DNA from: Escherichia phage UE-S1 | Sequence record: ON568341.1 | Reading direction: 5' to 3' (one strand) | Length of the DNA: 64,000 nt | Part shown: one piece after another, positions 14,351 to 63,644 of the stretch | Numbering within the stretch: the stretch's first letter is position 1 | Layout of the letters: each line of letters starts with the position of its first letter | Position numbers and translations under genes: made by a program | The notes under the pieces: model-generated | The model's input: the letters and a program-made list of their open reading frames with translations, nothing else | Told to the model about the DNA's origin: nothing | The model's database searches: none

Positions 14351-14425
14351 AACTAAAATCTCCATATAATAATTATAATGTATTTACAAAAAAATACCAG
14401 CACATATTTCAGTACTGGTATAATG
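14351..14425 (-). promoter_or_regulatory. intergenic cassette: terminator hairpin + promoter + SD
   Basis: CCAGTACTGAAATATGTGCTGG hairpin; TGTAAATACATTATAAT...GGAG. Confidence 0.45.
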
Positions 14426-15607: not shown

Positions 15608-15680
15608 AATAAAATCTCCGTAATTAAATTATATAGTATTTACAAAAAATACCAGTACATATTTCAGTACTGACCTATTA
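15608..15680 (-). promoter_or_regulatory. intergenic cassette: terminator hairpin + promoter + SD
   Basis: CAGTACTGAAATATGTACTGG hairpin; TGTAAATACTATATAAT...GGAG. Confidence 0.45.
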
Positions 15681-16802: not shown

Positions 16803-16875
16803 ATTTTCCTCCTTTATTCATTATACTATATTTAATACAAAAAGAAATGCCAGTATCAAGTACTGGCATATTAAT
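16803..16875 (-). promoter_or_regulatory. intergenic cassette: terminator hairpin + promoter + SD
   Basis: GCCAGTACTTGATACTGGC hairpin; GTATTAAATATAGTATAATGAATAAAGGAGG. Confidence 0.5.
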
Positions 16876-47295: not shown

Positions 47296-47539
47296 AATGC
47301 TAGTACTGACAGAACTAGAAATGTATCATAGATTTAACAAGTACTATCATTTACTTAAGCCTATACAGAGGATTAAATGTCCATTTGAAGAGAAACAGGT
47401 ATTAATTTATGAGCATAAGTTATTTGTATCATTAGGTACGAATGAACAAGAGTATTATTTGAAGTTGTACTTAATTACTTTAATTGAATTGATTAATCAC
47501 AAAACTCAGAAAGCTAAGAAATCTAAAAATGAAAACTAA
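47288..47539 (+). CDS. LGTNYQE-family small protein
   Basis: motif LGTNEQEYYL. Confidence 0.55.
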   Translation: MFKMLVLTELEMYHRFNKYYHLLKPIQRIKCPFEEKQVLIYEHKLFVSLGTNEQEYYLKLYLITLIELINHKTQKAKKSKNEN

Positions 47540-47867
47540 TATTCAACTCAAGGTATACATATCTTATGAATCTATATACATCAAATGCAGTCTATGTAAA
47601 GATGTAATGGATTATAAAGGTAAGCCATTCACAATTACTTACAGTCTAACAGGAGGTTTTTATATATCTTTTGTTGATTACGAAAATAAAATATACAAGC
47701 ACATTGATATTAAAGATTTAAGTACCTTGTCAGATGAGGAATACTTTCAAGAATCATTAGTATGGGATTTAGAGTTTCCTATGACATTAGTACACAAAAT
47801 GATAGTTCTAATGAAAGAAACTAAACCTGAGCCGAGTGGTTATGAAGAATTCATTATTGAGTATTAA
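47529..47867 (+). CDS. FQxSLVxD-family protein (first member, interleaved with LGTNYQE array)
   Basis: motif EEYFQESLVWDLEFPM. Confidence 0.55.
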   Translation: MKTNIQLKVYISYESIYIKCSLCKDVMDYKGKPFTITYSLTGGFYISFVDYENKIYKHIDIKDLSTLSDEEYFQESLVWDLEFPMTLVHKMIVLMKETKPEPSGYEEFIIEY

Positions 47868-47879
47868 GAGTACTGATAT

Positions 47880-48095
47880 ATGAAAATATTATCATACAAA
47901 GATTATAGTAAGCTTATCAGTGCTTTGCAACCAGAAATTAGGAGAATTAATTCTCTTCCTGTATCTAATGCAGAATGTACAGTACTGAAAAAAGAGTTAA
48001 TATTAAAACGCACAGTAGGTACTAACTATCAGGATAATAGTGTTCGAGATTTAATTAGAGGGTTAATGAACACAATAAAGGCCAAGTGCCATTGA
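47880..48095 (+). CDS. LGTNYQE-family small protein
   Basis: motif VGTNYQDNSV. Confidence 0.55.
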   Translation: MKILSYKDYSKLISALQPEIRRINSLPVSNAECTVLKKELILKRTVGTNYQDNSVRDLIRGLMNTIKAKCH

Positions 48096-48159
48096 CAGTA
48101 CTTGACGGAGCTTTTCATTACTGATATAGTACACAAACGTTAATCATAGGGTAGAAATT

Positions 48160-48405
48160 ATGTTAAAATTTTTAAATTTCCTTATCGTCTTGTGTATTGT
48201 TCTTGGGATTGCACCGTTTGTACTGGTGTATATGGATTCAGATGAAATGCAAAAGATGAATTGCACAAAGACGGGACAGAGTAGAGAAGAGACGATTCTT
48301 ATGCCTGTTACCGTTATTGTTAATAATATGCCCATTACAAACATGGTCCCTAACCTAACGACAACGTACCAGTACTCTTGTACAGACGGGGAGAGGTGGA
48401 GATGA
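48160..48405 (+). CDS. small membrane protein (81 aa)
   Basis: Hydrophobic N-terminus FLNFLIVLCIVLGIAPFVLV; promoter-like TTGACG-17-TATAGT upstream. Confidence 0.45.
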   Translation: MLKFLNFLIVLCIVLGIAPFVLVYMDSDEMQKMNCTKTGQSREETILMPVTVIVNNMPITNMVPNLTTTYQYSCTDGERWR

Positions 48406-48722
48406 AATTTAATATAGCAAAAACATCGAATGTATGTATATTTGGTTATGCAGATGAGTTAGGTGATCTTGACATTCTTTTGTACAAAAAGGATGGTGTT
48501 ATGCATTTCAAGTACCAGGATGAAGAGGCAGACAATTATCCTTTACCTAATTTAGTACAAATGCAGGAAGAGGAATTATTCCAGTACAGCTTAGTATATG
48601 ACATTGATATTTGCACGATGCCAGTACTAATTAATATTCAAAAAGTGATGCTCGATGTGTTTGATAGGCTAATACAAGGCACACAAGGAAGAACCATATA
48701 TGTCAATGTACAAGACAATTAA
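48402..48722 (+). CDS. FQxSLVxD-family protein
   Basis: ATG 48402 after GGAGAGGTGGAG SD; motif EEELFQYSLVYDIDICTMP. Confidence 0.55.
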   Translation: MKFNIAKTSNVCIFGYADELGDLDILLYKKDGVMHFKYQDEEADNYPLPNLVQMQEEELFQYSLVYDIDICTMPVLINIQKVMLDVFDRLIQGTQGRTIYVNVQDN

Positions 48723-48915
48723 TCAAGAATGGAAGACCCAAAAATACAGAGAATTCAATAGGAATTTTACAAAAGACGAATTGAATATAAAAACAACAGA
48801 ATTTGATATGTTTATTTTTCTCGGAACACGTTCACAGGAGCAATTTGTTCATTATTATATAAATTCGTTGCGAACGGAGATAGTATGCAAAACAAAGGGT
48901 ATTATAAAAAGGTAA
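48700..48915 (+). CDS. LGTNYQE-like small protein (divergent)
   Basis: motif LGTRSQEQFV. Confidence 0.5.
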   Translation: MSMYKTINQEWKTQKYREFNRNFTKDELNIKTTEFDMFIFLGTRSQEQFVHYYINSLRTEIVCKTKGIIKR

Positions 48916-49151
48916 ACCAACATTTGTACGCTACAAAGTACAGGGATTTTTGTTTAAAGGGTGGTGATGAAGATTTTTCTTTGCGATTATCAGAATTTAA
49001 TCTGTTATTTTATCTTGGTACATCGGAACAAGAAGAAATGGCACAGAAATTTATCAAGCACCTTGTACAAAAAATTAATATGCAAATTTTGATGCTTAAG
49101 TTACAGAATGAGATAAATGAATATGAACCCAACAATAGTACTGGATCTTAA
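48885..49151 (+). CDS. LGTNYQE-like small protein (divergent)
   Basis: motif LGTSEQEEMA. Confidence 0.5.
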   Translation: MQNKGYYKKVNQHLYATKYRDFCLKGGDEDFSLRLSEFNLLFYLGTSEQEEMAQKFIKHLVQKINMQILMLKLQNEINEYEPNNSTGS

Positions 49152-49506
49152 AAAAGTAATATTTCTATTGAATGCCAGAAGTGAATTGTATACAGAGTTA
49201 AAAGAGATTAATGCATTTTATCAGAATTTTGTAATCCAAGAGTTCAGTGATTTAATTACAGATGCATTATTTGAATTCTCGGAGAAATACAAAGGAGCCG
49301 AGTTCAGTGTTAAGAATGTATTACGTCCTTTATCTAAGCGTATAATAAAATTGGATCATTTTAAATTTGACAATAAAGATTTATTCAGCTATAATCCTAA
49401 TACAGCTTTATATTTTATTCCTGATTCAGACAAAGATCACCCAATTCATTACGGATGGATTCTGTCGTACATAGAACAAGGAAAGGAGTATCCTATTAAA
49501 TGGTAA
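49117..49506 (+). CDS. hypothetical protein (129 aa)
   Basis: ORF in array; no family motif recognised. Confidence 0.45.
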   Translation: MNMNPTIVLDLKKVIFLLNARSELYTELKEINAFYQNFVIQEFSDLITDALFEFSEKYKGAEFSVKNVLRPLSKRIIKLDHFKFDNKDLFSYNPNTALYFIPDSDKDHPIHYGWILSYIEQGKEYPIKW

Positions 49507-49660
49507 GATTATGGCGTTTAGATTATTACACAATTAATGTAAATTATTTGCTGAGTAATATAAAATCCGATTACAAAATATGGATAAAGAACAGAGATAG
49601 TATGTGTTATGAATTTTATTTAGATTATGCTATCAAACGATTTTTAAGAGAAGAACATTA

Positions 49661-49864
49661 GTGCAAAATAGTAATACGATAACATTAAATGCATTACAGG
49701 ATTCATTATTAGATAGTATTAAGATGTATTACAATATACATTTGAGGGGTGGCATTGATGATTATAATTATTATTTGAGTTTAATTGTAATTGAGCACCT
49801 TTCAGTACAGGACAGGATTTTACATCCTACAAATCCTATGTATCCATCAATAGGTAAATTATGA
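49661..49864 (+). CDS. hypothetical protein (67 aa)
   Basis: ORF; ATGA coupling to next gene. Confidence 0.4.
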   Translation: MQNSNTITLNALQDSLLDSIKMYYNIHLRGGIDDYNYYLSLIVIEHLSVQDRILHPTNPMYPSIGKL

Positions 49865-50418
49865 ATGAGATAGAGTTATTAGCACACAAGATAAGTACAA
49901 TAATGCTTATCCTCAATAACAACCATCCTATATCGCAGATAGATGGAATCCTGAGTCAGAGGACAGGTGGTAGTTTATATTTGTCCATAAACGCAAATAT
50001 CGCAAGGAAATACATTGACATTGGTGATGTTGATGCTGAAATCGAATGTGATACAACTGGAATTGTTGATGTAGGTGCATTAATCAGTTCAAATCCTGTA
50101 TCAGTATCCCCATTGACCAAAGGTGTTAGTACAGGATTCGAAGGATATTTGTGGTATAATGCTAATGATAATTATTTTATATATCAGCATTCCAATACAA
50201 ATTATGATGAAGATAAATTTGAGTTCATTGACCCTTATGATGAAGCTGGAGTATTTCAACAATCATTAATCACAAAACCACATCAAATGATGTATCTAAT
50301 GTTATTCAGTACAATGAATTTGAATCCATTAATTAATGGTTTAAAGTTTTATATTCAATTGAATCTGGTTCATATAGTTTATGATTTATTAATGCAAGGA
50401 TATAGTTATGAAGTATAA
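49861..50418 (+). CDS. FQxSLVxD-family protein (185 aa)
   Basis: motif DEAGVFQQSLITKPHQ. Confidence 0.5.
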   Translation: MNEIELLAHKISTIMLILNNNHPISQIDGILSQRTGGSLYLSINANIARKYIDIGDVDAEIECDTTGIVDVGALISSNPVSVSPLTKGVSTGFEGYLWYNANDNYFIYQHSNTNYDEDKFEFIDPYDEAGVFQQSLITKPHQMMYLMLFSTMNLNPLINGLKFYIQLNLVHIVYDLLMQGYSYEV

Positions 50419-50710
50419 AATGATGTATACTCCAGATATGATTTATGTTGAATTAGAAGACGATGACGACGGGTGGAATTTGATTTATTCAATTAGTTCA
50501 GGTTGGTACATGGCACATTTAAATGATAACAAAGTTACAGATTATTTTGTAGATTTCAACACCTTATCCGATGAAGAATTGTTTCAACAACAATTAGTGA
50601 TTGATACAGGTGGTTATGATGTGTTATTATTAAAAAAGATACAGAAAGCTGTTATTGATTTTAAGCCCAATATGTTGCAAAGGAAATATTATGACATCGA
50701 AGTACAATAA
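50408..50710 (+). CDS. FQxSLVxD-family protein
   Basis: motif DEELFQQQLVIDTGGYD. Confidence 0.55.
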   Translation: MKYKMMYTPDMIYVELEDDDDGWNLIYSISSGWYMAHLNDNKVTDYFVDFNTLSDEELFQQQLVIDTGGYDVLLLKKIQKAVIDFKPNMLQRKYYDIEVQ

Positions 50711-51044
50711 TGTATTTGATATTAAGAAATTAAAAGAATGGGTTTATAGTATTGAAATTGAAGCAATTCCTTATCATAGATACAAACAATATGATTTATG
50801 TAATATAGATATTCGTGAGTTGTACGCATATTATCAGAGTGCATTAGAGATGCATAAGATATTTTTGAGTTCAAATTACATGACACGTTGTAATGATGCT
50901 TTTAAAGAATTTAATAATTATAATTTAGTACAAAAATATGTAGTATCAAAGTACATGTACAATCAAGGAATTAAAGGTTGTATTGAATTCAATTCGGTCT
51001 TTGCTTTAGTTGAGATAATTTTATGCAGTACATGTCTGATTTAG
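50691..51044 (+). CDS. hypothetical protein (117 aa)
   Basis: ATG 50691 after AGGAAA; track ORF 50655 trimmed. Confidence 0.45.
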   Translation: MTSKYNNVFDIKKLKEWVYSIEIEAIPYHRYKQYDLCNIDIRELYAYYQSALEMHKIFLSSNYMTRCNDAFKEFNNYNLVQKYVVSKYMYNQGIKGCIEFNSVFALVEIILCSTCLI

Positions 51045-51520
51045 AGTTTAGTTTAGATGCTGCTTTTAAATTTGTACACAAGATAGAAACAATATATCGT
51101 ACATTATGTGCAATACGATTAGTAACATCTGAACTTGATGTTGGTAAAAGGTATCAGGTATGGAATAACACATTTCTAGACAAAGAGCGTTGTTCAACTG
51201 GGTTTAATATTTTATCATTTAATCCAAGTAATTGTTACCCAGAGAAGCATGAGCGTTATCCGAATGATGACATGTGGTTTGAGTACAAAGAAGATGGTGA
51301 TATGTCGTTCATTGAAGTTCCTGATGATTTTAATGCACAAGATTTAACTGAAGAATGGTGGTTCCAGCAGAATTTAGTCCACGATGATATTGATTTATTT
51401 TTTTATGTAGTATTTAAAATGCTTTATCATAACAAGATAGTACAAGATAGTGTATTTTTTTCATGTCTATATATTGATGATTTGTACAATGAAATTCAAA
51501 TCAACATGCCTGTATCGTAA
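51023..51520 (+). CDS. FQxSLVxD-family protein
   Basis: motif EEWWFQQNLVHDDIDLF. Confidence 0.55.
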   Translation: MQYMSDLEFSLDAAFKFVHKIETIYRTLCAIRLVTSELDVGKRYQVWNNTFLDKERCSTGFNILSFNPSNCYPEKHERYPNDDMWFEYKEDGDMSFIEVPDDFNAQDLTEEWWFQQNLVHDDIDLFFYVVFKMLYHNKIVQDSVFFSCLYIDDLYNEIQINMPVS

Positions 51521-51600
51521 GATATGGGCTTTTTTTGTTTTGGTATTGACATAGAAGTACAAAACTGTTATCATGGGTAATCATTTTAAAGGAGGAATTT

Positions 51601-52134
51601 ATGGCGAGTTTTATGGTTCCAAGTACATACGAAGATGCATCAAGTGCAGTGCATAAGGTTCATCATATTTTTAATTTAATTATTAATGCATCAAAAAATA
51701 AAATGTATGCACCTCTAGTGAAATTTAATAAAAATGAGGAAATTTTTGTTAGTACAGAACAAACGATTTTTCCATATTTCAATAAAGATAGATTATGGTT
51801 CATGCATTCAGTCGCATTACAAAGATATAATATAACAAGATCCAACGAAAATCATAATCCAAGATATTTGCATATATCGTTATACCATCCCGATATTGGA
51901 GAGGATGAATATTTTCAGTACAGCACAGTACACCACCATGAAGATATCTTTGCTGCTATGCTTATTGCTAAATTGAACACCGTTGATTTGGAGAAGCACA
52001 AATACAATAATAAATCATGTAAGATCATAATCCCTGCATTCATAGCTCTTTATGATTATGTGGTGCATAACAAAAAAGATGATACATATGCTTTCAATGA
52101 AGAGTATTTGAATTTTTTTAAGGAGAACATATGA
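51601..52134 (+). CDS. FQxSLVxD-family protein
   Basis: AAGGAGGA SD; motif EDEYFQYSTVHHHEDIF; promoter-like TTGACA-17-TATCAT upstream. Confidence 0.55.
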   Translation: MASFMVPSTYEDASSAVHKVHHIFNLIINASKNKMYAPLVKFNKNEEIFVSTEQTIFPYFNKDRLWFMHSVALQRYNITRSNENHNPRYLHISLYHPDIGEDEYFQYSTVHHHEDIFAAMLIAKLNTVDLEKHKYNNKSCKIIIPAFIALYDYVVHNKKDDTYAFNEEYLNFFKENI

Positions 52135-52661
52135 GCAGTACAACAGTACAGAAAGCAATGACATTCAATGAAATTGGTACATTTAAAGATAAGATCATTG
52201 ATTGCCTTGAATACATGATTTGTAGTAATATTGAGAGTATCGAAATATTTAACAAGAGAAATCGCTCTTACCATATGATGTACACTGCAAAAAATACTGG
52301 TATCATTCCATTTATTTCGGATAGCACAATATGGTACGCATGTGATACGAAAAAATACACAGCAGGTTCGTATAGCGTAGGGTCACATACGGAATTGATT
52401 ATTCCTGAGCATTGTATACAAGAAGAAGAATATTTTCAAATGCAATGTGTACATTCACCATTAGAGTTGTTTAGTTTATATATGATACCGTATATTTCTA
52501 AATGTGTTCATGAGAATAAAGCTCCGTGGAATCATGAATTTGTATCGTTGAAGTTATTGTATAATGTATTAGTAGAATATTATGATTACAGGCACAATGG
52601 TACAATCAGTGATGTATGGGATTTTGAATCGCTAAGGGTGAAAACATACACAGGTGAATGA
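52131..52661 (+). CDS. FQxSLVxD-family protein
   Basis: ATGA overlap; motif EEEYFQMQCVHSPLELF. Confidence 0.55.
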   Translation: MSSTTVQKAMTFNEIGTFKDKIIDCLEYMICSNIESIEIFNKRNRSYHMMYTAKNTGIIPFISDSTIWYACDTKKYTAGSYSVGSHTELIIPEHCIQEEEYFQMQCVHSPLELFSLYMIPYISKCVHENKAPWNHEFVSLKLLYNVLVEYYDYRHNGTISDVWDFESLRVKTYTGE

Positions 52662-53277
52662 TATGACCAGAATTAAAATGTATGATTTGATGCAGTACAG
52701 TAAAATTGCAATTCCAGTACTTAATAAAGTGCTGGATGCATTCATTGCCAAATACCCTGAGAATTCAGAGTTACGCATTCCATTTCGTGTACCAGATAAA
52801 GATGATATATTCCAAGTGAATGTCAGTACACGTGGTATTACATTGCAGCAGAAATACATGGATACAGAATATTATGGAATAAAGTTGGATTCAGTTCAGG
52901 GTTCGAAATCAGCCTATGATTTTTTTGTTCCTAATAATATAGAGTCATGGGAAACAAACATTTCAAAGAAAGATGAAAATGATGTTCCTATTAGCGGTGA
53001 ATTAAACAATAAAGTTTTTTATTATTACGAAACTGATAAATTCCCTGAAGAGTTATATTACAATTCAGAAATGAGTGAAGATGTAGATGCATTTATGTTT
53101 CAATTATCTTTAGTACATGATATCATCGACGTTCAAGAGTTAAGAGCAGAAATCAATTTAGCTAAAGAGTTGTCGGACATGTTGCCACCGTTTAGTATGA
53201 TTTTTTGTGAAGGAGGTTATTTTACAAAAGAAGTGTTTGAACATTTCGTAGATGTTGTAAAAGGGTTGGATATATAG
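52654..53277 (+). CDS. FQxSLVxD-family protein
   Basis: motif DAFMFQLSLVHDIIDV. Confidence 0.55.
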   Translation: MNDMTRIKMYDLMQYSKIAIPVLNKVLDAFIAKYPENSELRIPFRVPDKDDIFQVNVSTRGITLQQKYMDTEYYGIKLDSVQGSKSAYDFFVPNNIESWETNISKKDENDVPISGELNNKVFYYYETDKFPEELYYNSEMSEDVDAFMFQLSLVHDIIDVQELRAEINLAKELSDMLPPFSMIFCEGGYFTKEVFEHFVDVVKGLDI

Positions 53278-53278
53278 T

Positions 53279-53473
53279 ATGCTTACTGATGATATTAAAC
53301 AAAAATACCGTAAGTTTGATTGGTTCACCGACAGTTTCCAGCTTGAATTACTGCATTTGAATATAAGTGAGACATTATGTGCAGAAACACAAGATGAATT
53401 TGATGACAGAGTTCTTAACATAGTAATGCTTTCTTGCTTTAAACATTTTGGTTATTTTTTCGAACAGGATTAA
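53279..53473 (+). CDS. hypothetical protein (64 aa)
   Basis: ORF tightly following previous gene. Confidence 0.4.
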   Translation: MLTDDIKQKYRKFDWFTDSFQLELLHLNISETLCAETQDEFDDRVLNIVMLSCFKHFGYFFEQD

Positions 53474-53481
53474 GGTACAAA

Positions 53482-53997
53482 ATGCATCAACACAAGCATC
53501 ATTCATATGATTTTGCAATTAACATTATGAAGTTCATTCGAGCGTTGGAGGATGGGAAGCTTAGTCATAAGTACAGGAAAGAGGGTAACAATTGGTTCAG
53601 AAATGATTCCGAGTTCAGGAGTCATAACATCGTGTATAGCAATCAGTACAGTGCCAATTACCTACAAGATGTAGTGATGTGTTTTGAATATGTATTGCAG
53701 TTCAGGGGTACAATCCAGAATGAATTAATGGATCACATGTACATCCGATACCTTCCAATGCATAAAGATGAAAATGCATTATTAGGTTCAATATACCAAC
53801 GAGTAAGGGAAATTGAGTGCAGGGATATATTAGATACAGAAGAATCGTATTTCCAGCAATCTCTTATTACTGCACCTGATTCATTACAGGCACATAATTT
53901 GTTTAATACATTACGTCAGAACATCAGTACAGACATATTTTTGTCATTATTGGATTATGATACATTTGTCAAAGATTTAGAGGAAATAGGTTTATGA
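53482..53997 (+). CDS. FQxSLVxD-family protein
   Basis: motif EESYFQQSLITAPDSL. Confidence 0.55.
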   Translation: MHQHKHHSYDFAINIMKFIRALEDGKLSHKYRKEGNNWFRNDSEFRSHNIVYSNQYSANYLQDVVMCFEYVLQFRGTIQNELMDHMYIRYLPMHKDENALLGSIYQRVREIECRDILDTEESYFQQSLITAPDSLQAHNLFNTLRQNISTDIFLSLLDYDTFVKDLEEIGL

Positions 53998-54350
53998 GTA
54001 TATTTTCGGTTTGTGTGGTAAACATAAAAAGTGATGGTAGTTTAATTGAATTTGAACTAGTTGATGACGATTATAATGCATATGGTATTAAAGTACAGGG
54101 CAATGATGTACAGTTCAGTGCAAGAACAGATTATGAAAATCCAGTCCATGTTCCTAATTTCATAGAAGATGAAGCAACCCGATTCCAATACGAAACGGTA
54201 TATGACAATGTACATATGCATATTGTTATGCAACAAAGTTTAGTTCAATTAGTTCCTTTGTTCAGACAAAATATATATGTACACGAGATAACGATTGGTG
54301 GCATAAGTAAATCCGTGTTATTCCGTACAATTGATTCCTATGATATGTAA
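53994..54350 (+). CDS. FQxSLVxD-family protein
   Basis: ATGA overlap; motif EATRFQYETVYDNVHMH. Confidence 0.5.
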   Translation: MSIFSVCVVNIKSDGSLIEFELVDDDYNAYGIKVQGNDVQFSARTDYENPVHVPNFIEDEATRFQYETVYDNVHMHIVMQQSLVQLVPLFRQNIYVHEITIGGISKSVLFRTIDSYDM

Positions 54351-54359
54351 GGAAGTACA

Positions 54360-54908
54360 ATGAGTTTATTAGATACATTAGAAAAAGACAGAAGTGCAAT
54401 TAAGCGTTTAAAAGAGCAAGTACAAAAGATTGTATACAACGTTGATAAGTTTGAGGTTCCCGGAAGATTTGGTGATATTTCCCATACGGAGATCAAATCC
54501 CTGAAGTCAGATTTGTTGATTAAAAATAAAAATGAGTTGATTTTAGTTTTGAGTTCAGATATGATGGGGGCAAGATATGGTTTTAATTCAATATCAGTAC
54601 ATCCTAAGAGTGAAGGGTTATATCTATCACAGGGTTTCAATAGCAACGAGCAGAAGTGTTTTTGTGATGCCGTGCATGATCCTATGAAGTTCAGGAGAAG
54701 TGAAGCCCAAGCGTTATTAGAGCTATCAGACGAAAGTTTGTTTCAGTACAGTACAATATACGACAATGACAAGCTTCGTTGTATGTACGCAGTGAAGCAT
54801 TATGCACATGAGTTCTCTGGATTTGAATACCTTTTAGTCAGAACCAATACAATGTATCTTGATATGTTAGAAGAATACATCGATAAAGTTGTCAATGAGT
54901 ATTACTAA
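54360..54908 (+). CDS. FQxSLVxD-family protein
   Basis: AAGGAAG SD; motif DESLFQYSTIYDNDKL. Confidence 0.55.
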   Translation: MSLLDTLEKDRSAIKRLKEQVQKIVYNVDKFEVPGRFGDISHTEIKSLKSDLLIKNKNELILVLSSDMMGARYGFNSISVHPKSEGLYLSQGFNSNEQKCFCDAVHDPMKFRRSEAQALLELSDESLFQYSTIYDNDKLRCMYAVKHYAHEFSGFEYLLVRTNTMYLDMLEEYIDKVVNEYY

Positions 54909-55069
54909 TGAAAGAGTTATTTGAAGATCAGTTCAATACCTATGTGGATAATATTCTTTATTCCAGTCGTGACAGTCAACGAGGGAATCGTGCTTACAAT
55001 ATTGATTACCTATTAGTGGTACTGAGTTCACAGTACACACACGCTGTACAGAGGATGTATTATGAATAG
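54908..55069 (+). CDS. small hypothetical protein (53 aa)
   Basis: TAATG coupling; under ORF-track cutoff. Confidence 0.3.
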   Translation: MKELFEDQFNTYVDNILYSSRDSQRGNRAYNIDYLLVVLSSQYTHAVQRMYYE

Positions 55070-55265
55070 TTATCACGATATTGCAAAGGAGAAGTTGGAG
55101 TGCAGTTTAGATTACGGTTTAAATGATTTTCTTACATGCACAATGTACAGGAATGATGATTATGAGCAATCCGTAATTTCGTTGCACAGATATTTCGAAA
55201 TAATTTACGCAAGATATCTTAGAAGGTTAGAGGGAATAGGGGATTGGAATTATGATTACGTTTGA
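55062..55265 (+). CDS. hypothetical protein (67 aa)
   Basis: ORF with GAGGA SD-like. Confidence 0.4.
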   Translation: MNSYHDIAKEKLECSLDYGLNDFLTCTMYRNDDYEQSVISLHRYFEIIYARYLRRLEGIGDWNYDYV

Positions 55266-55497
55266 AGAGCCGGAAACAATGAGTCCATATACGATGAAAG
55301 GTTTTGAATTCATGATGGATTCGATTTTGAAGAGTTCGTGTTTAGTACACAATCCTGGATGTGCTACAGTGAGGGAATATCAGGACAATGCATTGCATCG
55401 TGTAATGAATATGTACAGGAATACGAGCCGTAAGCTTTGTGCGATTAAAAGGATTAAAGAAATCAAGGCTTCTAAGATGAATAAAATCAATCCGTGA
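55252..55497 (+). CDS. hypothetical protein (81 aa)
   Basis: ORF overlapping previous stop. Confidence 0.4.
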   Translation: MITFEEPETMSPYTMKGFEFMMDSILKSSCLVHNPGCATVREYQDNALHRVMNMYRNTSRKLCAIKRIKEIKASKMNKINP

Positions 55498-55542
55498 GAT
55501 TTTTGAAATCTTCGTATTCATATATCATAAGGTTTAATAAAA

Positions 55543-56271
55543 ATGAAATATAAAGAATTTTGTATAAAAACATGGATGTACACTGGTGAATTGCTTACGT
55601 GTTGTAATTTGTACAAGCGTGATGTAAACTTCACAAAGGACAAAGTTATCAAGTATGAAAATTCTCAATTTTATTTGATGGATTTTAGTACTGGGTTTCA
55701 TGGTAAATCAACCGAGATGCTGGATTATACATTAATGGATGAGGCGGCACTATTTCAAGAATCATTAGTATTTGATAAGAAGTACATCTGTACATTAGAA
55801 GAGATGATTGAAATTCAGAATAAAATTAAATGTGTTCACAGGGAATGTATTGATAAATGGTGTAAAACTGGTGAAACTGATTTTAGTAATCATTTTAATC
55901 TAGGAGAAAGAGTGATGGAATTTGATTTTTTAATATCAGTGCATACATTCAAGAATACACATCAGTACTTTTGTAATTTAAACAAAGGTGATTTAATGCA
56001 CAGTGCGAATGAGTATATTCATTTTATGGATGGTAAATTCACATTCATTGATTACAGTTCATTACAATATCCACATCAAGATATGCCGGACTATACAATA
56101 ATGAATGAGGCTGAACTATTTCAAGCTTCATTAGTATTTGACAAGAAGTACATCTGTACATTTGAAGAAGTAATTACTATACAAAATGAAATGAAGGAGT
56201 ATGCATCTTTGAATAAACCCAATGAAGGTATTAATCAAGAATACAAATTCAATATAGAGATTCCAAAATGA
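55543..56271 (+). CDS. FQxSLVxD-family protein with internally duplicated domain (242 aa)
   Basis: Two copies: TLMDEAALFQESLVFDKKYICTLEEMIEIQNKIK and TIMNEAELFQASLVFDKKYICTFEEVITIQNEMK. Confidence 0.6.
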   Translation: MKYKEFCIKTWMYTGELLTCCNLYKRDVNFTKDKVIKYENSQFYLMDFSTGFHGKSTEMLDYTLMDEAALFQESLVFDKKYICTLEEMIEIQNKIKCVHRECIDKWCKTGETDFSNHFNLGERVMEFDFLISVHTFKNTHQYFCNLNKGDLMHSANEYIHFMDGKFTFIDYSSLQYPHQDMPDYTIMNEAELFQASLVFDKKYICTFEEVITIQNEMKEYASLNKPNEGINQEYKFNIEIPK

Positions 56272-56627
56272 CATATGATTACTCTATGTACTATTATAAG
56301 TTACCTAAAGGATGGGACTTGTGCTGTAATCTTATTAAGGGAGACTCGGAACATGAGTTGAATTTATATATGCACTACAAAGATTCTTGTTTTAAATTTA
56401 TTCATGTATCACATGATGACTATGACTATGAATCTGAGAGTCTTATAGATTATACAGTACTGGACGATGGCGAACTATTTCAGGAAGCATTAGTGTTTGA
56501 TAAGAATAAGTACTCCTGTACATTTGAAGAAATGGTTTCTTTGCAAACTGAAATGAAGAGATTTGAAAAAGAAAACGTATTTAATCCATCCCCATCAAGA
56601 ACGAATAATTATTATTTCAATATATGA
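56268..56627 (+). CDS. FQxSLVxD-family protein
   Basis: ATGA overlap; motif DGELFQEALVFDKNKYSCTFEE. Confidence 0.55.
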   Translation: MTYDYSMYYYKLPKGWDLCCNLIKGDSEHELNLYMHYKDSCFKFIHVSHDDYDYESESLIDYTVLDDGELFQEALVFDKNKYSCTFEEMVSLQTEMKRFEKENVFNPSPSRTNNYYFNI

Positions 56628-56636
56628 GATTATAAA

Positions 56637-57110
56637 ATGACATTACAGAGTTCATTGGAAAAAGCAAAGAAGATCCATGAGTACATGAATATGGCAAAAG
56701 AAGGTTCAGTTTACGGTGTTTTCAAAGACACAAGTACTCAATATTATGTGCCGGATAACCTCCTTTATAATGACTACTCAGATACAGAAACGTGCGTACT
56801 GGATACCGACCCTAAAGATTATGAATGTTTCATTGATATGCATTATGAGTACATGGTCTATATTAATGATGCAGATATTACCATCTACAGTACTGACAGC
56901 GATTCCGATGACATTATAATTCCGAGTGAAGTTCTGGAAGGTCCGTGGGATAGTGAAGAGTATTACTTCCAACAAAGTACTGTGTATGATGAAGAAGTTT
57001 TAGATGTTATTGTAATTATGTGGTATTTTAAAAGTATTGGTTCTGGGAACTTCTATTTCGATTACAAATACGTAAAGAAAACTGTAGATAACGGTATTAA
57101 CAGGGGTTGA
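56637..57110 (+). CDS. FQxSLVxD-family protein (MSLQSxLEKAK subfamily)
   Basis: motif EEYYFQQSTVYDEEVLDVIVIMWYFKSIG. Confidence 0.6.
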   Translation: MTLQSSLEKAKKIHEYMNMAKEGSVYGVFKDTSTQYYVPDNLLYNDYSDTETCVLDTDPKDYECFIDMHYEYMVYINDADITIYSTDSDSDDIIIPSEVLEGPWDSEEYYFQQSTVYDEEVLDVIVIMWYFKSIGSGNFYFDYKYVKKTVDNGINRG

Positions 57111-57111
57111 A

Positions 57112-57582
57112 ATGAGTTTAGAAAGAGCATTAGAGATTGCGAAGTTAATTGATTTATGCAGCAAAGAAATTGTATCAAATTGTCTCAATGGATATCTATT
57201 CAAGGAAGGTAAATCATATTGTCGAATGAGATACGATGACAGTAGTGAGTATATTCACATGTATGAAGAAGACCTTGATGATTCCGAAATAACACTGAAT
57301 GGGTGTGATGTTAATCTGGAAGATAATTACATTTACTTCAGTCGTGGTGCTGATATTTTAATACAAGAAACATCAATTCAACATGTGAATCCAGATGTAT
57401 ATCTTCCATATTCAGTACTGGATAATGACTGGGGAAGTGAAGAGGTTTACTTTCAGCATAATACTATCTATGATGAAGATGTGCTTGACAAGCTTGTCAT
57501 TCTGTGGTACTTTAAGAACACTGATACTCCCAACTTCTATATGGATTTGGATCTACTACGAGTTATAAAAGAGGATATATGA
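57112..57582 (+). CDS. FQxSLVxD-family protein (MSL subfamily)
   Basis: motif EEVYFQHNTIYDEDVLDKLVILWYFKNT. Confidence 0.6.
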   Translation: MSLERALEIAKLIDLCSKEIVSNCLNGYLFKEGKSYCRMRYDDSSEYIHMYEEDLDDSEITLNGCDVNLEDNYIYFSRGADILIQETSIQHVNPDVYLPYSVLDNDWGSEEVYFQHNTIYDEDVLDKLVILWYFKNTDTPNFYMDLDLLRVIKEDI

Positions 57583-58022
57583 GTTTAGCAAGTGCACTTA
57601 AACTGGCACACAAAATACATCACTTCCACGATAACATAAAAAGTGGGTTTTATGGTGATAAAGTACATACATATGGAAATGAATATTATCTATCAGGTGT
57701 GACAAGATACTCTAATGATATTTTACTTATGGGATGTGATAAAGATAACTTCATGCAGTACACGTCATGTAGCTTATACACTAATTTTATTGTATATATG
57801 CCTGGTGCTAATATTACATTTGACACATCAAATACCTCGGTAGATTTTGGAATACTGGATGGGCCGTGGGGGACTGAAGAGTATTACTTCCAACAGAGTT
57901 TTATTTTCAGCCAAGAAATGCTTGATTCCTTGGTTGTTTTGTGGTACTTTAAGGAATTAGATATAGAACCCTTCTTTATGGACTGGGGGGCGTGTGAGTA
58001 TTTAGAGACAGAGGTATATTAA
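57579..58022 (+). CDS. FQxSLVxD-family protein (MSL subfamily)
   Basis: ATGA overlap; motif EEYYFQQSFIFSQEMLDSLVVLWYFKEL. Confidence 0.6.
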   Translation: MSLASALKLAHKIHHFHDNIKSGFYGDKVHTYGNEYYLSGVTRYSNDILLMGCDKDNFMQYTSCSLYTNFIVYMPGANITFDTSNTSVDFGILDGPWGTEEYYFQQSFIFSQEMLDSLVVLWYFKELDIEPFFMDWGACEYLETEVY

Positions 58023-58510
58023 TGTCATTGCAGAGTGCATTAAAAGAGGCAAAGAAGATTCATGAGTACATGATTATGGTACAGGAAGGTTTAGTGCCTG
58101 GTGTATACAAAACATCAGATACGGAATTCTTTGTTCTGGACAGGGATGATTATGATGAGTCCGAGGTACATGCTGAAACATTAGTTCTGCACACTGATAC
58201 TGGTGATAGTGACAACTGTGAATATCATATGTACAATCAATACATTAGTTATTGCCGTAATGAAGATATTACCATCTACAACACAGATATTGATGCTGAT
58301 GACACTATCATTCCATATTCAGTTCTGGAAGGTCCGTGGGATAGTGAAGAGTATTACTTTCAGAATAGTACTATCTACAGTGAAGAAGAACTGGATGTTA
58401 TTGTGATTATGTGGTACTTTAAAAGTATTGACTCCAGTAGTTTCTATTTTGATTATGAATATGTAGAGAATACAGTAGGAGAAGGTAATGTCATTACAAA
58501 GTGCTCTTGA
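58022..58510 (+). CDS. FQxSLVxD-family protein (MSL subfamily)
   Basis: TAATG overlap; motif EEYYFQNSTIYSEEELDVIVIMWYFKSI. Confidence 0.6.
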   Translation: MSLQSALKEAKKIHEYMIMVQEGLVPGVYKTSDTEFFVLDRDDYDESEVHAETLVLHTDTGDSDNCEYHMYNQYISYCRNEDITIYNTDIDADDTIIPYSVLEGPWDSEEYYFQNSTIYSEEELDVIVIMWYFKSIDSSSFYFDYEYVENTVGEGNVITKCS

Positions 58511-58934
58511 AAAAGCAAAAGAACTACATGGATACTTTGAAGATATAAAGGCAGGAAAGTTCAAAGAAGTATACAAAACCGAGAACGGTAACTACTACAA
58601 AGATGAAATATATAATAATTCCGTTGGTGTAAGGGTTATTCTTGGGTTGAATTCCAATAGTCCTGTGTCGTTTTCTGAATACAATAGAGATGCAGAATTC
58701 ATTAGTTATGTTGAAAATGGTAGCATTCGTTTTATTAATAGACAAAAACCATTAATTTTGAATTATGAAGTTCTGGATGGTCAGTGGAATAATGAAGAGT
58801 ATTACTTCCAAAACAGTACTGTATACGACGATGAAGTACTTGAAGCATTAGTTATTATGTGGTACTTCAAGAGTATTAACTGTCCTCGATTTTATTTGGA
58901 TTTCGAAGAACTTGGTAAAGATCCAGAGGTATAG
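58488..58934 (+). CDS. FQxSLVxD-family protein (MSL subfamily)
   Basis: motif EEYYFQNSTVYDDEVLEALVIMWYFKSI. Confidence 0.6.
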   Translation: MSLQSALEKAKELHGYFEDIKAGKFKEVYKTENGNYYKDEIYNNSVGVRVILGLNSNSPVSFSEYNRDAEFISYVENGSIRFINRQKPLILNYEVLDGQWNNEEYYFQNSTVYDDEVLEALVIMWYFKSINCPRFYLDFEELGKDPEV

Positions 58935-58935
58935 A

Positions 58936-59250
58936 ATGAAAAACTTATTCAGTGTTCAGTACGTTCCAGGTGAAATTAGTTTATTGTATCTCTTTGACCA
59001 TGATAATTCATTATTACTAGTAGTGAAGAAATGCCAAGCTAGTTCGTTTGTTGAATACATTCACGATAATGAATATATACCTGATTTTTTAGAGTGTGAT
59101 TATCACGATGAACATGAATCATTTATTTTCCAGGAATCGCTAGTATGGGATAAGTCGATTAACTTTTTTACGTTAATTGAATTACAAAAGCAGGTGAAAT
59201 ATCATTGGGATTACTTAATTACCCAAGACTACATAGAGATAGAAATATAA
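58936..59250 (+). CDS. FQxSLVxD-family protein
   Basis: ATG 58936; motif SFIFQESLVWDKSINFF. Confidence 0.5.
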   Translation: MKNLFSVQYVPGEISLLYLFDHDNSLLLVVKKCQASSFVEYIHDNEYIPDFLECDYHDEHESFIFQESLVWDKSINFFTLIELQKQVKYHWDYLITQDYIEIEI

Positions 59251-59558
59251 TGACTAAAAATGAATTTGATTCACTTTGTACGGTTTATAATTCATTGACA
59301 GCAATACCTGACTTTATTAATTATATTTCAGCTTTAAATCACATTATGCATAGTTTTGAACAATCATTTGAAGAGAAATATGCTGGAAGAAAAGTTCTAT
59401 GTCATATGACAATGTACTTAGGAGATGGTGAGCCTTACACTACAAGTACTACATGTGAAATAAAAAAATATAATATATTATTGGGAACTATAGAATTCAC
59501 AGTATCCAATGGCGGTAGTTATATGTACTTTAGAGATGGAGTGGTTGAATTATTATGA
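59250..59558 (+). CDS. hypothetical protein (102 aa)
   Basis: TAATG coupling; no family motif. Confidence 0.45.
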   Translation: MTKNEFDSLCTVYNSLTAIPDFINYISALNHIMHSFEQSFEEKYAGRKVLCHMTMYLGDGEPYTTSTTCEIKKYNILLGTIEFTVSNGGSYMYFRDGVVELL

Positions 59559-60004
59559 GTTACGAAAGTGCAATCAAGAAAGCAAATGATATTCTACGCG
59601 TCGTTCAATTCTTCAAAGAAAATCCTGAATACGTAGATGATAAAAACCAAGAGAACGATGAGAGATTGAGACGAAAAATTATCTCTTTATTTGACACTAA
59701 TAAAGATAATTGGAGTCTATGTGAGTTAGCATACGATTATATTTCATTGAACCGAAATGATGATGTAGTTAAGATAGAAAGGCATGAATCAGAAGAATCT
59801 TTTAAAATTTCAGATATTTTATCCCTGAGTACTGAAGAAGGGTACTTCCAGGGTAGCACTCTTTATAATGAAGAAACACTTGACAATCTATGCACATTCA
59901 GTGTAATATATCAGAAATCTGTACTAGATATATTTTATCTTGACACTGCTGAACTGCATACCCTAACCAATTTTGTTACTACCGAAGAGGCTACATTCGA
60001 GTGA
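59555..60004 (+). CDS. FQxSLVxD-family protein
   Basis: ATGA overlap; N-term MSYESAIKKAN; motif EEGYFQGSTLYNEETLDNL. Confidence 0.55.
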   Translation: MSYESAIKKANDILRVVQFFKENPEYVDDKNQENDERLRRKIISLFDTNKDNWSLCELAYDYISLNRNDDVVKIERHESEESFKISDILSLSTEEGYFQGSTLYNEETLDNLCTFSVIYQKSVLDIFYLDTAELHTLTNFVTTEEATFE

Positions 60005-60537
60005 TGAAAGTTAACATTAATGACTTTGATGCATTACAAGATTTATCAAAAAAGATTCGCACCATCGTACCAGTACTTAAAAAATGCAGTACTGGTTTAA
60101 TCGATCCTAGTACTGTTGTTAATGAGAAGTACAATTTTCATCGTGTATTACAGGGGACAGGTGCATTTCAGAAGTGTGAGGTACGTGAGAAACATGTAAT
60201 TGATACATCGTTGTTTTCTATTGGTGCACCTGTGTCAAACAATACTATTTTCCTGGATGCCTCTGGAAATATTCAACAATTAACATTTAAGAAAAGGAAA
60301 AAGAATAATAACATTGGTGTGTACGCGATGAAGTGGGGACAGCCAGCGTTGATGCGTGACATTCACATTCCTAAGTACAATTTCAATGCATTTGAAGAAC
60401 AGTGTTTTCAACTTTCTTGTACTGACCCTGACTATGCTATCATTCAATTCTATATGGAATTGCAGATTGCATTTAATAGTAATTTGTATATTAACTTATT
60501 GGCAATGAACATAGATGAAGTATTCAAAAACATTTAA
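60001..60537 (+). CDS. FQxSLVxD-like protein (divergent)
   Basis: ATGA overlap; motif EEQCFQLSCTDPDYA. Confidence 0.5.
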   Translation: MMKVNINDFDALQDLSKKIRTIVPVLKKCSTGLIDPSTVVNEKYNFHRVLQGTGAFQKCEVREKHVIDTSLFSIGAPVSNNTIFLDASGNIQQLTFKKRKKNNNIGVYAMKWGQPALMRDIHIPKYNFNAFEEQCFQLSCTDPDYAIIQFYMELQIAFNSNLYINLLAMNIDEVFKNI

Positions 60538-60733
60538 TCGAATTGAATACATGAGAACTGTGAGAGCGGTGTGGAATATATGGTACACTACTAAACCAAA
60601 AATGGATTACCATGATTTTAAGCTCTTGTTCTTTGTTGGCTCTAACAAACAGGATGTTGCAATGAAGGGTTATATTCAGCACTTACAGGAACTAATCCAG
60701 AAGAGAATATATGAAAATAATAGACCAAAATGA
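60515..60733 (+). CDS. LGTNYQE-like small protein
   Basis: motif FVGSNKQDVAMKGYIQHL. Confidence 0.5.
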   Translation: MKYSKTFNRIEYMRTVRAVWNIWYTTKPKMDYHDFKLLFFVGSNKQDVAMKGYIQHLQELIQKRIYENNRPK

Positions 60734-60902
60734 CATTGCTAAACTATTCAATATATATTCTACTAGAATGATGCAAACAGATTCATATAGTACTAAATTC
60801 AAAGAGTTGAAAGTACTGATGTACTTGGGAACACAATATCAGGAACAAGTTATTTTAGAATATATTAATTCATTAAAGAAGGATATCCGTGATGTACGAT
60901 GA
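60711..60902 (+). CDS. LGTNYQE-family small protein
   Basis: motif LGTQYQEQVILEYINSL. Confidence 0.55.
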   Translation: MKIIDQNDIAKLFNIYSTRMMQTDSYSTKFKELKVLMYLGTQYQEQVILEYINSLKKDIRDVR

Positions 60903-61452
60903 TTTAGATCTTGCGTTTGAACGCATGAAAATTTTAATGCAATGCAATGAAATGCATGAGACAATCCGTCGCACCAAAGGGATTGAATATACAAGTAAAC
61001 TATTCTCATACGAAAGTCGTCGAGGGATGGATCATTTTTACTGCACTGATTGTTCAAAGTTTTCAGTACTGAAATATTATCATCCTACTGTTTCCAATAA
61101 TAGTTTAATATCCACATATGACGGTGATCTGTTTAGTGTAATGTATGACACATTACATCCATCAATTTCAATATATAAAGATTGCGATAGTAGTCTATCG
61201 TATATAATTGAAGATTACTTATCTCCTAATACTGAAGAGAATATATTTCAAAACAGTGTATTGCATGATGAATTAAGTATAAAATGCATCTATATGTTCA
61301 ATAAGTTAAAAGAATACGTTGATAATAATTACTTAATTGATGAGTTAGCTGTGTTTTCGGTTTCAGTTTTCAATACAAATGATGTTGATATGAAATACTA
61401 TAATGAAATTTGTAAAGTACATAACATGTATAAGGAACTCTTATGCTACTAA
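60889..61452 (+). CDS. FQxSLVxD-family protein
   Basis: motif EENIFQNSVLHDELSIKCIYMF. Confidence 0.55.
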   Translation: MMYDDLDLAFERMKILMQCNEMHETIRRTKGIEYTSKLFSYESRRGMDHFYCTDCSKFSVLKYYHPTVSNNSLISTYDGDLFSVMYDTLHPSISIYKDCDSSLSYIIEDYLSPNTEENIFQNSVLHDELSIKCIYMFNKLKEYVDNNYLIDELAVFSVSVFNTNDVDMKYYNEICKVHNMYKELLCY

Positions 61453-62045
61453 ATGCCAATAAATGTTGTAGTGCAGATGTGCATTTGTTTTTTAAGAAAT
61501 TGGCAAATGATATTATATATATGCAGGAAATGATTTACCACAAACGAACAGATTTAGAAAAAGCATTAGTACAGTTCTCCTTTATGCTTGATGGTGATAT
61601 ATTTCTACATGGTGATACATTGCGAACAGTACTGGACGGAAATTCAAATAGAAGTTTCATTTGTACAAATAATAAATTTTCTTCCACGATGTGCCGTACT
61701 TTTTATAATCCTGATTCGGACTTATATCAAGTGTCGTATTCTAAAGGTGCAGTTGAATCATCATATTGTGATAGTTCAGCTTTAGGTAAAAGTCGTCCAT
61801 ATATGCAATCATTTGAAATTGAACTCATCAGTACTGATGAAGATGCAATGTTCACAAATGATATAACGATGGATCGTGAATCGGCAATGATATATATTAC
61901 AAATTCTATGCATACATTCTTTCAACGATTAGAATTTGATAATGTATATATATCAAATGTAAATATTTTCAATGATCTGTGTCAGTACTTGAAAAGTGTT
62001 TGTGATTTTGATGAAAGCTATTGTAAGCTTTATACTGAGGTATAA
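61443..62045 (+). CDS. hypothetical protein (200 aa), possibly divergent family member
   Basis: Degenerate motif DEDAMFTNDITMD. Confidence 0.45.
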   Translation: MLLNANKCCSADVHLFFKKLANDIIYMQEMIYHKRTDLEKALVQFSFMLDGDIFLHGDTLRTVLDGNSNRSFICTNNKFSSTMCRTFYNPDSDLYQVSYSKGAVESSYCDSSALGKSRPYMQSFEIELISTDEDAMFTNDITMDRESAMIYITNSMHTFFQRLEFDNVYISNVNIFNDLCQYLKSVCDFDESYCKLYTEV

Positions 62046-62050
62046 AACAA

Positions 62051-62413
62051 ATGAACACATTAAGTATTACATACTATACAACTAAAAAATTAATTACTTG
62101 TTTAATATCATTGAAGTCAAAAAATGATGATATGTTTGATATGGCTGCATATGAATTAGAATTATCAGAAGATGGTTTCAAGATCTATGAAGTATATAGC
62201 TATGTTCGTGAAGATGTAATTGACACTACACTAATGCAAGAGGATGAGTTATTCCAAGAAAGTTTAGTATGGGATAATAAGTACGATTGTAACTTTGATT
62301 TCTTATGTTTAATCCAAAAAGAAATGAAAAGAATCTTTGATAATTATCCAATCAAACGTTTCAGTACTGCACCTGAGCAATATAAAAGGATTATATTCAC
62401 CTATGAAGATTGA
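62051..62413 (+). CDS. FQxSLVxD-family protein
   Basis: motif EDELFQESLVWDNKYDCNFDF. Confidence 0.55.
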   Translation: MNTLSITYYTTKKLITCLISLKSKNDDMFDMAAYELELSEDGFKIYEVYSYVREDVIDTTLMQEDELFQESLVWDNKYDCNFDFLCLIQKEMKRIFDNYPIKRFSTAPEQYKRIIFTYED

Positions 62414-62780
62414 ATTTGAAGTTATTACATATAGTATAGGTGATGGTATCCGTTGCTACGTACAAGCAAGGCATATTGTTCCTGATGATAAACTGTCACC
62501 CAAAAGTTTCCTTATTACACAAGAACTCTTAGATATTAACAGAGAGAACAAGTATACATATTATCTCACTAAGGGTTATTGTGGTTCGCGTGGATTTAAT
62601 ATTGTAGCTGTTTCTAGAGATGAAATTGATGATTTAACTGAGTACGGTGAAGAAGAGATGTTCCAGTACAGTACTGTTTTTAATGAACTGGATGTGTTTC
62701 TGTTACGAAAAATACAACACATTATGAAAGAATGTTTGCATCATAAGAGAGGTATTGTATGCGACGTGAATCTGAATTAG
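62403..62780 (+). CDS. FQxSLVxD-family protein
   Basis: ATG 62403; motif EEEMFQYSTVFNELDVF. Confidence 0.55.
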   Translation: MKIEFEVITYSIGDGIRCYVQARHIVPDDKLSPKSFLITQELLDINRENKYTYYLTKGYCGSRGFNIVAVSRDEIDDLTEYGEEEMFQYSTVFNELDVFLLRKIQHIMKECLHHKRGIVCDVNLN

Positions 62781-63100
62781 TTAAAGTAATGTACGCTACT
62801 CATATTAAACTACTACTTGTGAAATTTGATTATAATATAAAACATAATAATTTCTATACGTTGATTCGTGATGAAAATTCATTCTCATTGCGATGCAACA
62901 ATATACAGTGGACGATAAGTGATTTTACTTCACTTGACGAGGGTGAATTATTTCAAGAATCATTAGTTTTTAATAGTAATATAAAAGTTGATATAGAAGC
63001 AATTAAACAGTATCAAATATTATTAAACAAAATTATGGATTGTTATCCATGTGAAATAGGTGGTCATATGCAGTTCAAATCAAAAATGTACGAGTTATGA
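62759..63100 (+). CDS. FQxSLVxD-family protein
   Basis: motif EGELFQESLVFNSNIKV. Confidence 0.55.
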   Translation: MRRESELVKVMYATHIKLLLVKFDYNIKHNNFYTLIRDENSFSLRCNNIQWTISDFTSLDEGELFQESLVFNSNIKVDIEAIKQYQILLNKIMDCYPCEIGGHMQFKSKMYEL

Positions 63101-63107
63101 GGTCTTT

Positions 63108-63644
63108 ATGTTAGATAAAAAAATGAACACTGGAACTCTATACAATCATCTTAAGTTGGATACTTTCGAATCAGCTATCAGTACTGCACAAGATATTATC
63201 GATATTATTAAGTACATTAAAGAAAATAAGTTAAAATGTGTGAAAACACCCGAACGTACAATGTATAAAGATGACTGTATTCACGTATCTGTTGTTAATC
63301 CAAAAGATAAGGATGGTAATAGAGATTTCTATAATAACAGTGAGCAGTTCGAATGTGAATATGATCCAGAATTCAGAGGTGGTTTCATGTGTTACAGTAT
63401 GAAGGATACCTCACACATTGAGATACGTTCATCTAAAGGTGGCATACGTACATTAGAGTTCATTGATATAGTTTTAAATCAGGAATACTACTTTCAACTA
63501 TCATTATTGTTTCCTGCATACGATTTAGGAGTTCTATTCATGTATAAGTACTTTCATGAGCACTGGAATGAAGACTTCTATCTGGACTTAGAAGATTACC
63601 AATTAGTTTGGGAAGAAATGGTAGAACTTCGCAACCACTCTTGA
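63108..63644 (+). CDS. FQxSLVxD-family protein
   Basis: ATG 63108; motif QEYYFQLSLLFPAYDLG. Confidence 0.55.
   Translation: MLDKKMNTGTLYNHLKLDTFESAISTAQDIIDIIKYIKENKLKCVKTPERTMYKDDCIHVSVVNPKDKDGNRDFYNNSEQFECEYDPEFRGGFMCYSMKDTSHIEIRSSKGGIRTLEFIDIVLNQEYYFQLSLLFPAYDLGVLFMYKYFHEHWNEDFYLDLEDYQLVWEEMVELRNHS

Follow-up and report, generated by a model that had tools for sequence, protein, structure and literature searches.

How does one gene in an array of small paralogs come to carry the family domain twice? The question is raised by an open reading frame (ORF) of 242 amino acids plus a stop codon at positions 55543–56271 (+ strand) of the window, the 64,000-nucleotide stretch of Escherichia phage UE-S1 DNA (ON568341.1) analysed here. 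The initial annotation described two near-identical copies of a motif block in this ORF, read them as the outcome of either a recent duplication in frame or a fusion between two members of the array, and took the arrangement as a sign that the array is actively recombining. We find that the locus as a whole is best explained, with a probability of roughly 0.85, by a lineage-specific fusion of two adjacent, old paralogs through one inserted A, giving a two-domain product. The functional parts of this explanation are held with low confidence.

A two-domain ORF in an array of single-domain genes

The ORF lies in an array of FQ-motif family genes that extends within the window from 47529 to 63644 (+ strand). 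An iterative HMM search of the window identified 22 ORFs with 23 domains in this array; two domains were found in the 242-amino acid ORF only, the other array ORFs being single-domain. The F-Q pair is invariant in all 22 aligned ORFs, within the motif (D/E)ExxFQxS(L/T)(V/I)x(D/N), and the 242-amino acid ORF is by this measure a member of the family. Overlapping stop and start codons are the rule at the junctions of the array, and the predicted isoelectric point is between 4.0 and 5.9 for 21 of the 22 members.

The ORF exists as it was initially described, with two copies of the motif block and a domain of about 120 amino acids. Copy 1 (TLMDEAALFQESLVFDKKYICTLEEMIEIQNKIK) occupies residues 63–96 (55729–55830, + strand) and copy 2 (TIMNEAELFQASLVFDKKYICTFEEVITIQNEMK) occupies residues 185–218 (56095–56196, + strand). 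Residues 21–96 align with residues 143–218 with a local BLOSUM62 score of 180, compared with 30.1 ± 5.4 in 2000 shuffles (z = 27.8). An HMM built from the window sequences found two domains in the ORF (i-E-values of 8e-26 and 1e-26), and the PHROG 15629 profile (121 positions) matched the protein in two stretches (E-value 1.3e-102), the best of which places residues 125–239 on profile positions 1–119 of 121 and so covers the C half from end to end. The next gene (56268–56627, + strand; 119 amino acids), which overlaps the ORF by ATGA, adds a third member to this subfamily (PHROG 15629, E-value 1.6e-59).

The term "near-identical" is apt for the quoted block, in which the two copies share 25 of 34 residues and 83 of 102 nucleotides, but it overstates the likeness of the halves as wholes, which are 35% identical overall (41/118). 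At the DNA level, a 116-nt block is 82% identical between the two halves. Outside this block the DNA of the two halves aligns only in short stretches (26 nt at most), and upstream of it little beyond a CNLxKxD stretch can be aligned. A third copy of the DNA block (56448–56558) is located inside the next gene, so that three copies follow one another with a period of 366 and 359 nt.

The family had no match in Pfam, NCBIfam (four members tested) or the PDB (searched with a sequence profile), and a literature search found no description of the family or the array. One candidate, Pfam DUF2283 (the UniRef label of P0057), was rejected, its match being a weak local one to a beta-hairpin (E-value 0.063; 13.9 bits versus a cut-off of 23 bits); none of 92 family members matches DUF2283 at an E-value of 0.01 or below. 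A profile search of 5.8 billion proteins returned 43 matches, all of them 80–121 amino acids long, and a full scan with HMMER, covering 1.84 billion representatives, returned 99 clusters of 89–160 amino acids with a single match each. The two-domain architecture is unique to this lineage. Within this uncharacterised family of Asteriusvirus/RaK2-like jumbo phages, whose other members have a single domain, the ORF represents a new, two-domain form.

One further annotation falls within the array. ARAGORN calls a tRNA-Cys at 58070–58154 (+ strand), inside the family ORF 58022–58510, with an ACA anticodon that is non-standard for cysteine. This call is probably a false positive.

The two halves are separate genes in related phages

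The window region has ~89% DNA identity to Asteriusvirus jumbo phages of Escherichia (121Q, BF17, PBECO4, SP27, phAPEC6, and others). Comparison with orthologous loci in related phages, which the initial annotation had proposed as a check, proved informative: in Asteriusvirus phages including 121Q, PBECO4, SP27 and fEgEco12 the two halves are two genes, and each half of the ORF is 73–86% identical to its own ortholog. The N domain (residues 1–122; 55543–55908, + strand) is the ortholog of 121Q g365, fEgEco12 g111 and phAPEC6 gp447c, and shares 73–81% amino acid identity with N-type orthologs. The C domain (residues 125–242; 55915–56271, + strand), which begins at the retained internal ATG and ends with the stop codon, is the ortholog of 121Q g368, fEgEco12 g112 and phAPEC6 gp444c, and shares 83–86% amino acid identity with C-type orthologs. 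At the 121Q locus, g369 corresponds to window gene 56268–56627, g366 is a short chimera that begins like the C half and then diverges, and g367 also belongs to the family. In fEgEco12, E9.1, SP27, PBECO4 and WPEC3, the N-type gene is immediately followed by the C-type gene; the pair is annotated as two genes with one base in common (locus positions 1497/1536–1874 and 1874–2230). The N-type ortholog in phAPEC6, gp447c (L016, 4997–5374), carries the GenBank label "amidohydrolase 3"; the N-type sequence of the window found no support for such a function in Pfam, and the label is likely a mis-annotation.

A recent in-frame tandem duplication of one gene would account for an ORF that holds two copies of one domain with a 116-nt block so well preserved between them. 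However, this block is the only part of the two halves that aligns at length, its dS is 0.68, and each half has a far closer, separate ortholog in every relative. Within the block, dS is as large between paralogs (0.47–0.68) as between orthologs of different phages (0.38–0.57; 0.05 for the 121Q C copy). These block values, which come from 37 codons only, rule out a recent copy and neither prove nor exclude gene conversion in the past. We therefore see virtually no chance that the ORF arose by recent duplication. The components are separate genes in relatives, and each is closer to its own ortholog than to its partner, which is the pattern of a gene fusion. Of the two origins initially proposed, fusion is retained and recent duplication is not: the two halves are old, long-diverged paralogs with a separate ortholog for each in every relative examined. 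The fusion product looks like an internal duplication because its partners are paralogs of each other.

Relative to orthologs, dN/dS is 0.20–0.34 for the N domain and 0.20–0.39 for the C domain, and neither half carries a disabling mutation. The range of ratios (0.20–0.39) shows that both halves are under purifying selection.

One extra A joins the two reading frames

In relatives, the two genes meet at GAAGAGTGATG, where the stop codon TGA overlaps the start codon ATG. The junction in the window reads GAAAGAGTGATG, with an extra A within 55907–55909. Set out more fully, the junction of the relatives is CTAGG(G/A)GAAG(A/T)GTGATGGAA, which encodes L-G-E-E/V followed by a TGA that overlaps the ATG of the next gene, and the junction of the window is CTAGGAGAAAGAGTGATGGAA. 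In the junction alignment, the AAA run at 55907–55909 (+ strand), in which the extra A creates the fusion, corresponds to AA in relatives (GAAAG versus GAAG). The fused frame reads L120, G121, E122, R123, V124, M125 and passes through the former stop codon of the upstream gene (TGA, 55913–55915, + strand), which is now out of frame and overlaps the downstream ATG (55915) as TGATG. The residues R123 and V124 come from two new linker codons, AGA and GTG (55909–55914, + strand), that are read in the fused frame only. A Shine-Dalgarno-like GGAG (55903–55906, + strand) is retained 8 nt upstream of the internal ATG. The sequence GAAG(A/T)GTGATGG and the two-gene layout were found together in six relatives and three metagenome contigs, and the window has one A more.

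Measured against the upstream frame, the downstream frame of relatives lies at −1, as would be needed if they made the same N–C fusion by programmed −1 ribosomal frameshifting and this lineage had hard-wired it. However, the upstream frame at the junction (CTA GGG GAA GAG TGA) contains no slippery heptamer of the form X XXY YYZ, and we give this explanation next to no credence.

The fusion is absent from all 32 GenBank phage records that span the junction, as judged by tblastn with a 54-amino acid junction peptide. The peptide matched as two pieces in two frames in 32/32 records, and the spans of the junction in the GenBank records are 161 nt (158 nt for 53-amino acid matches), one nucleotide short of an in-frame copy. 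In TH47 and CMSTMSU the spans are two nucleotides short. The three metagenome contigs are unfused, the fused junction was not found in IMG/VR (where the unfused pattern matched 121Q itself only), and no copy was found in RefSeq complete E. coli genomes or PLSDB plasmids. CMSTMSU was considered as a second fusion on account of a single tblastn piece and was rejected, its assembly being ridden with frameshifts; compared with all relatives, it has several single-base deletions within this one gene (L005, 1500–1880). The CMSTMSU record, with its many frameshifts, should not be used for comparisons of gene structure.

The fused gene is present in independent genomes

The fusion depends on a single-base difference from relatives in a short A run, and errors of this kind do occur in a relative, as the 1-nt deletions in CMSTMSU show. 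A sequencing or assembly error could thus have merged two genes that are truly separate through a spurious extra A. However, the A run comprises no more than 3 nt, and the exact 242-amino acid protein, with the same junction, is also encoded in two E. coli isolate assemblies from different samples (GCA_019326865.1 and GCA_024875585.1), on contigs of ~348 kb. Logan assemblies of two sequencing runs encode it as well, and agree with these two contigs over the compared stretch. The two genomes differ from the window at 371–383 positions over 12.7 kb (~3%) and from each other at 38. Inside the fused gene, each has two changes relative to the window, both synonymous. In addition, a 90% cluster holds four distinct 242-amino acid variants (K32R, H53R, V124M) on 3, 10, 4 and 2 contigs (19 in total), one of which (P0010) has GERM-M in place of GERV-M at the linker. 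All three amino acid differences among the fused variants fall in the N half or the linker.

As two further genomes and 19 contigs of assembled sequence carry the feature, we regard an artefact as extremely unlikely. The concern, raised with the initial annotation, that a frameshift or stop might separate two genes and the ORF be an assembly error was not borne out, the same ORF being present in independent genomes. At the level of assembled sequence, the fusion is confirmed as real, heritable and lineage-specific rather than an assembly error.

The contigs in the two isolate assemblies (L009 in GCA_019326865.1, 347,726 bp; L011 in GCA_024875585.1, 348,506 bp) are near-complete jumbo-phage genomes, each present as a single contig in an NCBI E. 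coli isolate assembly. Such contigs could point to a carrier state or pseudolysogeny, or to cultures contaminated with phage.

The 90% cluster also includes unfused close relatives. A contig from SRR32251462 (L017) is 98.85% identical to GCA_019326865.1, yet unfused. Around the junction it matches the window without a difference over ~500 nt, comprising ~140 nt on the upstream side and the entire C gene. Its junction, GAATAGTGATG (L017 2990–3003, corresponding to window 55900–55917), is without the extra A and has a G-to-T change that makes a TAG stop codon (GAG to TAG) two nucleotides before the ATG, and the C part is called as a separate 118-amino acid gene. L017 and the window are each one mutational step from the common GAAGAG state, by different changes at adjacent positions. 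The 5′ flank of the fused gene (55498–55542), which L009 and L017 share, is only 45 nt long; in GenBank relatives the N-type gene is instead preceded by an unrelated spacer of ~200 nt. A scan for promoters and terminators around the fused gene found nothing above the shuffled expectation.

The fusion may also be neutral or mildly harmful, with N impaired by its C-terminal extension, C made from its own start, and the allele in the course of being lost or re-split. The unfused state of L017 despite its identity to the window around the junction is consistent with this, as are the retention of the internal Shine-Dalgarno sequence and ATG and the restriction of amino acid differences to the N half or linker. 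On the other hand, the fused form is found on 19 contigs versus 5 for full-length C-type genes in its 90% cluster, it has gained substitutions while its frame stayed open, and neither half has been disabled. We consider a neutral or harmful fusion possible but unlikely.

Recombination in the array

The fusion does not itself show active recombination, because one inserted A needs no recombination. In that respect the initial reading of the ORF as a sign of an actively recombining array was not upheld, but recombination in the array is shown on other grounds, namely mosaic divergence and a 589-nt indel. Relative to its closest genomes (L009 and L011), the window has patches in 52000–52999, 54000–54999 and 57500–58499 that are about 5–13% diverged, versus less than 1% for most flanks; divergence from the closest relatives is ~12% in 52.0–52.5, 54.0–54.5 and 57.5–58.0 kb, and less than 1% elsewhere. 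The array is mosaic and does recombine.

In 121Q-type phages, 589 nt (the g366 chimera and g367) lie between the N-type and C-type genes, bounded by direct repeats of ~86 nt that start at TGATGGAATTTGA, the start of the C-type gene. The repeats are located at 8078–8163 and 8667–8752 in 121Q (L001) and at 5374 and 5903, 529 nt apart, in phAPEC6 (L016). Neither the window nor SP27-type phages contain the 589-nt segment (529 nt in phAPEC6), an indel that arose by repeat-mediated recombination. Deletion between the ~86-nt repeats could give the N/C adjacency seen in the window and in SP27-type phages.

The recombinogenic nature of the array, its mosaic divergence and the possible origin of the N/C adjacency by deletion leave some room for the idea that the fusion itself was made by recombination between array members (unequal crossover or gene conversion), and is thus a direct sign of array shuffling. 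However, the window is colinear with relatives of the SP27/fEgEco12 type (810 versus 809 nt), one A being the only structural difference. The N/C adjacency also predates the fusion, because unfused relatives have it too. A recombinational origin is, in our view, very unlikely.

Predicted structure of the fused protein

The AlphaFold2 (AF2) model of the C domain (pLDDT 85, pTM 0.81) has the elements b1–b5, a1 (which carries the FQ motif), a2 and b6, and the model of the N domain has b1–b5, a1, a long a2 and b6. In the model of the fused chain, the same order of elements occurs twice, with linker residues 121–131 at a pLDDT below 50; this model was made with an alignment over the N half only, and its pTM of 0.49 is uninformative on domain packing. 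Among BFVD models, those of PBECO4 and slurp01 members have a fold similar to the predicted one (TM-scores of 0.87 and 0.63).

The N half contains CVHRECIDKWC (residues 96–106; 55828–55860), a C-x-H-x2-C-x4-C pattern that is confined to the N-type subfamily and conserved in its orthologs, and it has a weak RINGv match (E-value 0.034). A zinc knuckle was considered for this motif and rejected, as the AF2 model puts the motif in a long helix.

Some array members carry the motif E-x-x-Y-F-Q-(G/S/Q), as EEGYFQGS in 59555–60004 and as EEYYFQQS / EEYYFQNS in 56637–57110 and 58022–58510. The family motif resembles the recognition sequence of TEV protease, ENLYFQ(G/S). The likeness is probably a coincidence, as the motif is predicted to start a helix inside the fold in the AF2 model.

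Possible roles of the family and the fusion

On the locus map, the array of phAPEC6 comprises gp431c–gp458c. Mass spectrometry of the virion of this relative found 62 proteins (PMC7247149 Table 1), and none of gp431c–gp458c is among them. We suggest, with low confidence, that the family may consist of accessory proteins that are soluble, mostly acidic and absent from the virion, and that they act on components of the host or of defence.

A second paralog array is located in the window at 7481–18024 (− strand), with nine ORFs of 373–396 amino acids and one of 245 amino acids. Two tested ORFs of this array have RCC1 repeats (PF00415 and PF13540 above the Pfam cut-off; PF25390 below it). "DNA condensation proteins" of ~41 kDa have been detected in phAPEC6 virions (PMC7247149 Table 1), and the ORFs of the second array probably correspond to these.

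The fusion arose as follows. In all other sequenced relatives the genes are separate, with a TGATG stop/start overlap where they meet, and in this lineage one A was inserted 6–8 nt upstream of this overlap (GAAG to GAAAG). The upstream frame is thereby shifted, so that translation skips the TGA and reads two new codons (R-V) into the downstream ATG. The predicted product is two complete domains of the same fold, joined by a short linker that is modelled with low confidence. With GGAG-N8-ATG intact inside the gene, independent initiation might still yield free C domain. The fusion is tolerated and inherited.

Overlapping stop and start codons as the rule in the array suggest that neighbours are co-translated, and neighbours of this kind may act together. 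The same rule implies that any such junction would be one indel away from fusion. If neighbours do act together, tethering N to C would perhaps change stoichiometry and not activity, though our confidence in this is low.

A more far-reaching proposal is that N and C, normally co-translated across TGATG, act as an obligate heterodimer, that the fused lineage is a natural single-chain version of it, and that the 22-gene array is a set of combinatorial pairing modules against host or defence targets. A related reading regards the junction as a mutable switch that toggles between split and tethered forms. Three junction states (GAAGAG, GAATAG and GAAAGAG) do occur at the same two positions in genomes that are otherwise identical over ~500 nt. 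We consider these proposals improbable.

Discussion

The lineage-specific fusion through one inserted A is an event of an ordinary kind, and the mechanism of its origin is ordinary. It offers a clean and datable case in which a dense phage gene array makes a multi-domain protein: a single-base indel at overlapping stop and start codons is enough to weld two neighbours. A fusion of paralogs that mimics internal duplication could lead annotators or models of repeat evolution astray. That N and C tolerate tethering is also shown by the fused allele, which offers a cheap handle on whether neighbours in the family act together.

Lineage-specific expansion of paralogs has been described in another jumbo phage, Bacillus phage G, which has ~35 zinc-ribbon copies (PMC7824862). 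Here too, small and divergent paralogs follow one another in a long tandem array within a jumbo phage genome, but the domain is different and is undescribed in the literature searched. Among protein families, the closest counterpart is PHROG 15629, a branch of the wider FQ-motif family, which groups Asteriusvirus proteins of ~120 amino acids and unknown function (e.g., 121Q g365, g368 and g369). Both fused halves match its profile; every other member found is single-domain, whereas the fused ORF has two domains in one chain. Gene fusions through loss of the stop codon between adjacent, overlapping genes are of the Rosetta stone type. As in such fusions, the components here are separate and adjacent in related genomes, and what joined them is an indel of 1 nt at the TGATG overlap. 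Unlike them, the partners here are paralogs of each other, and the product mimics an internal duplication.
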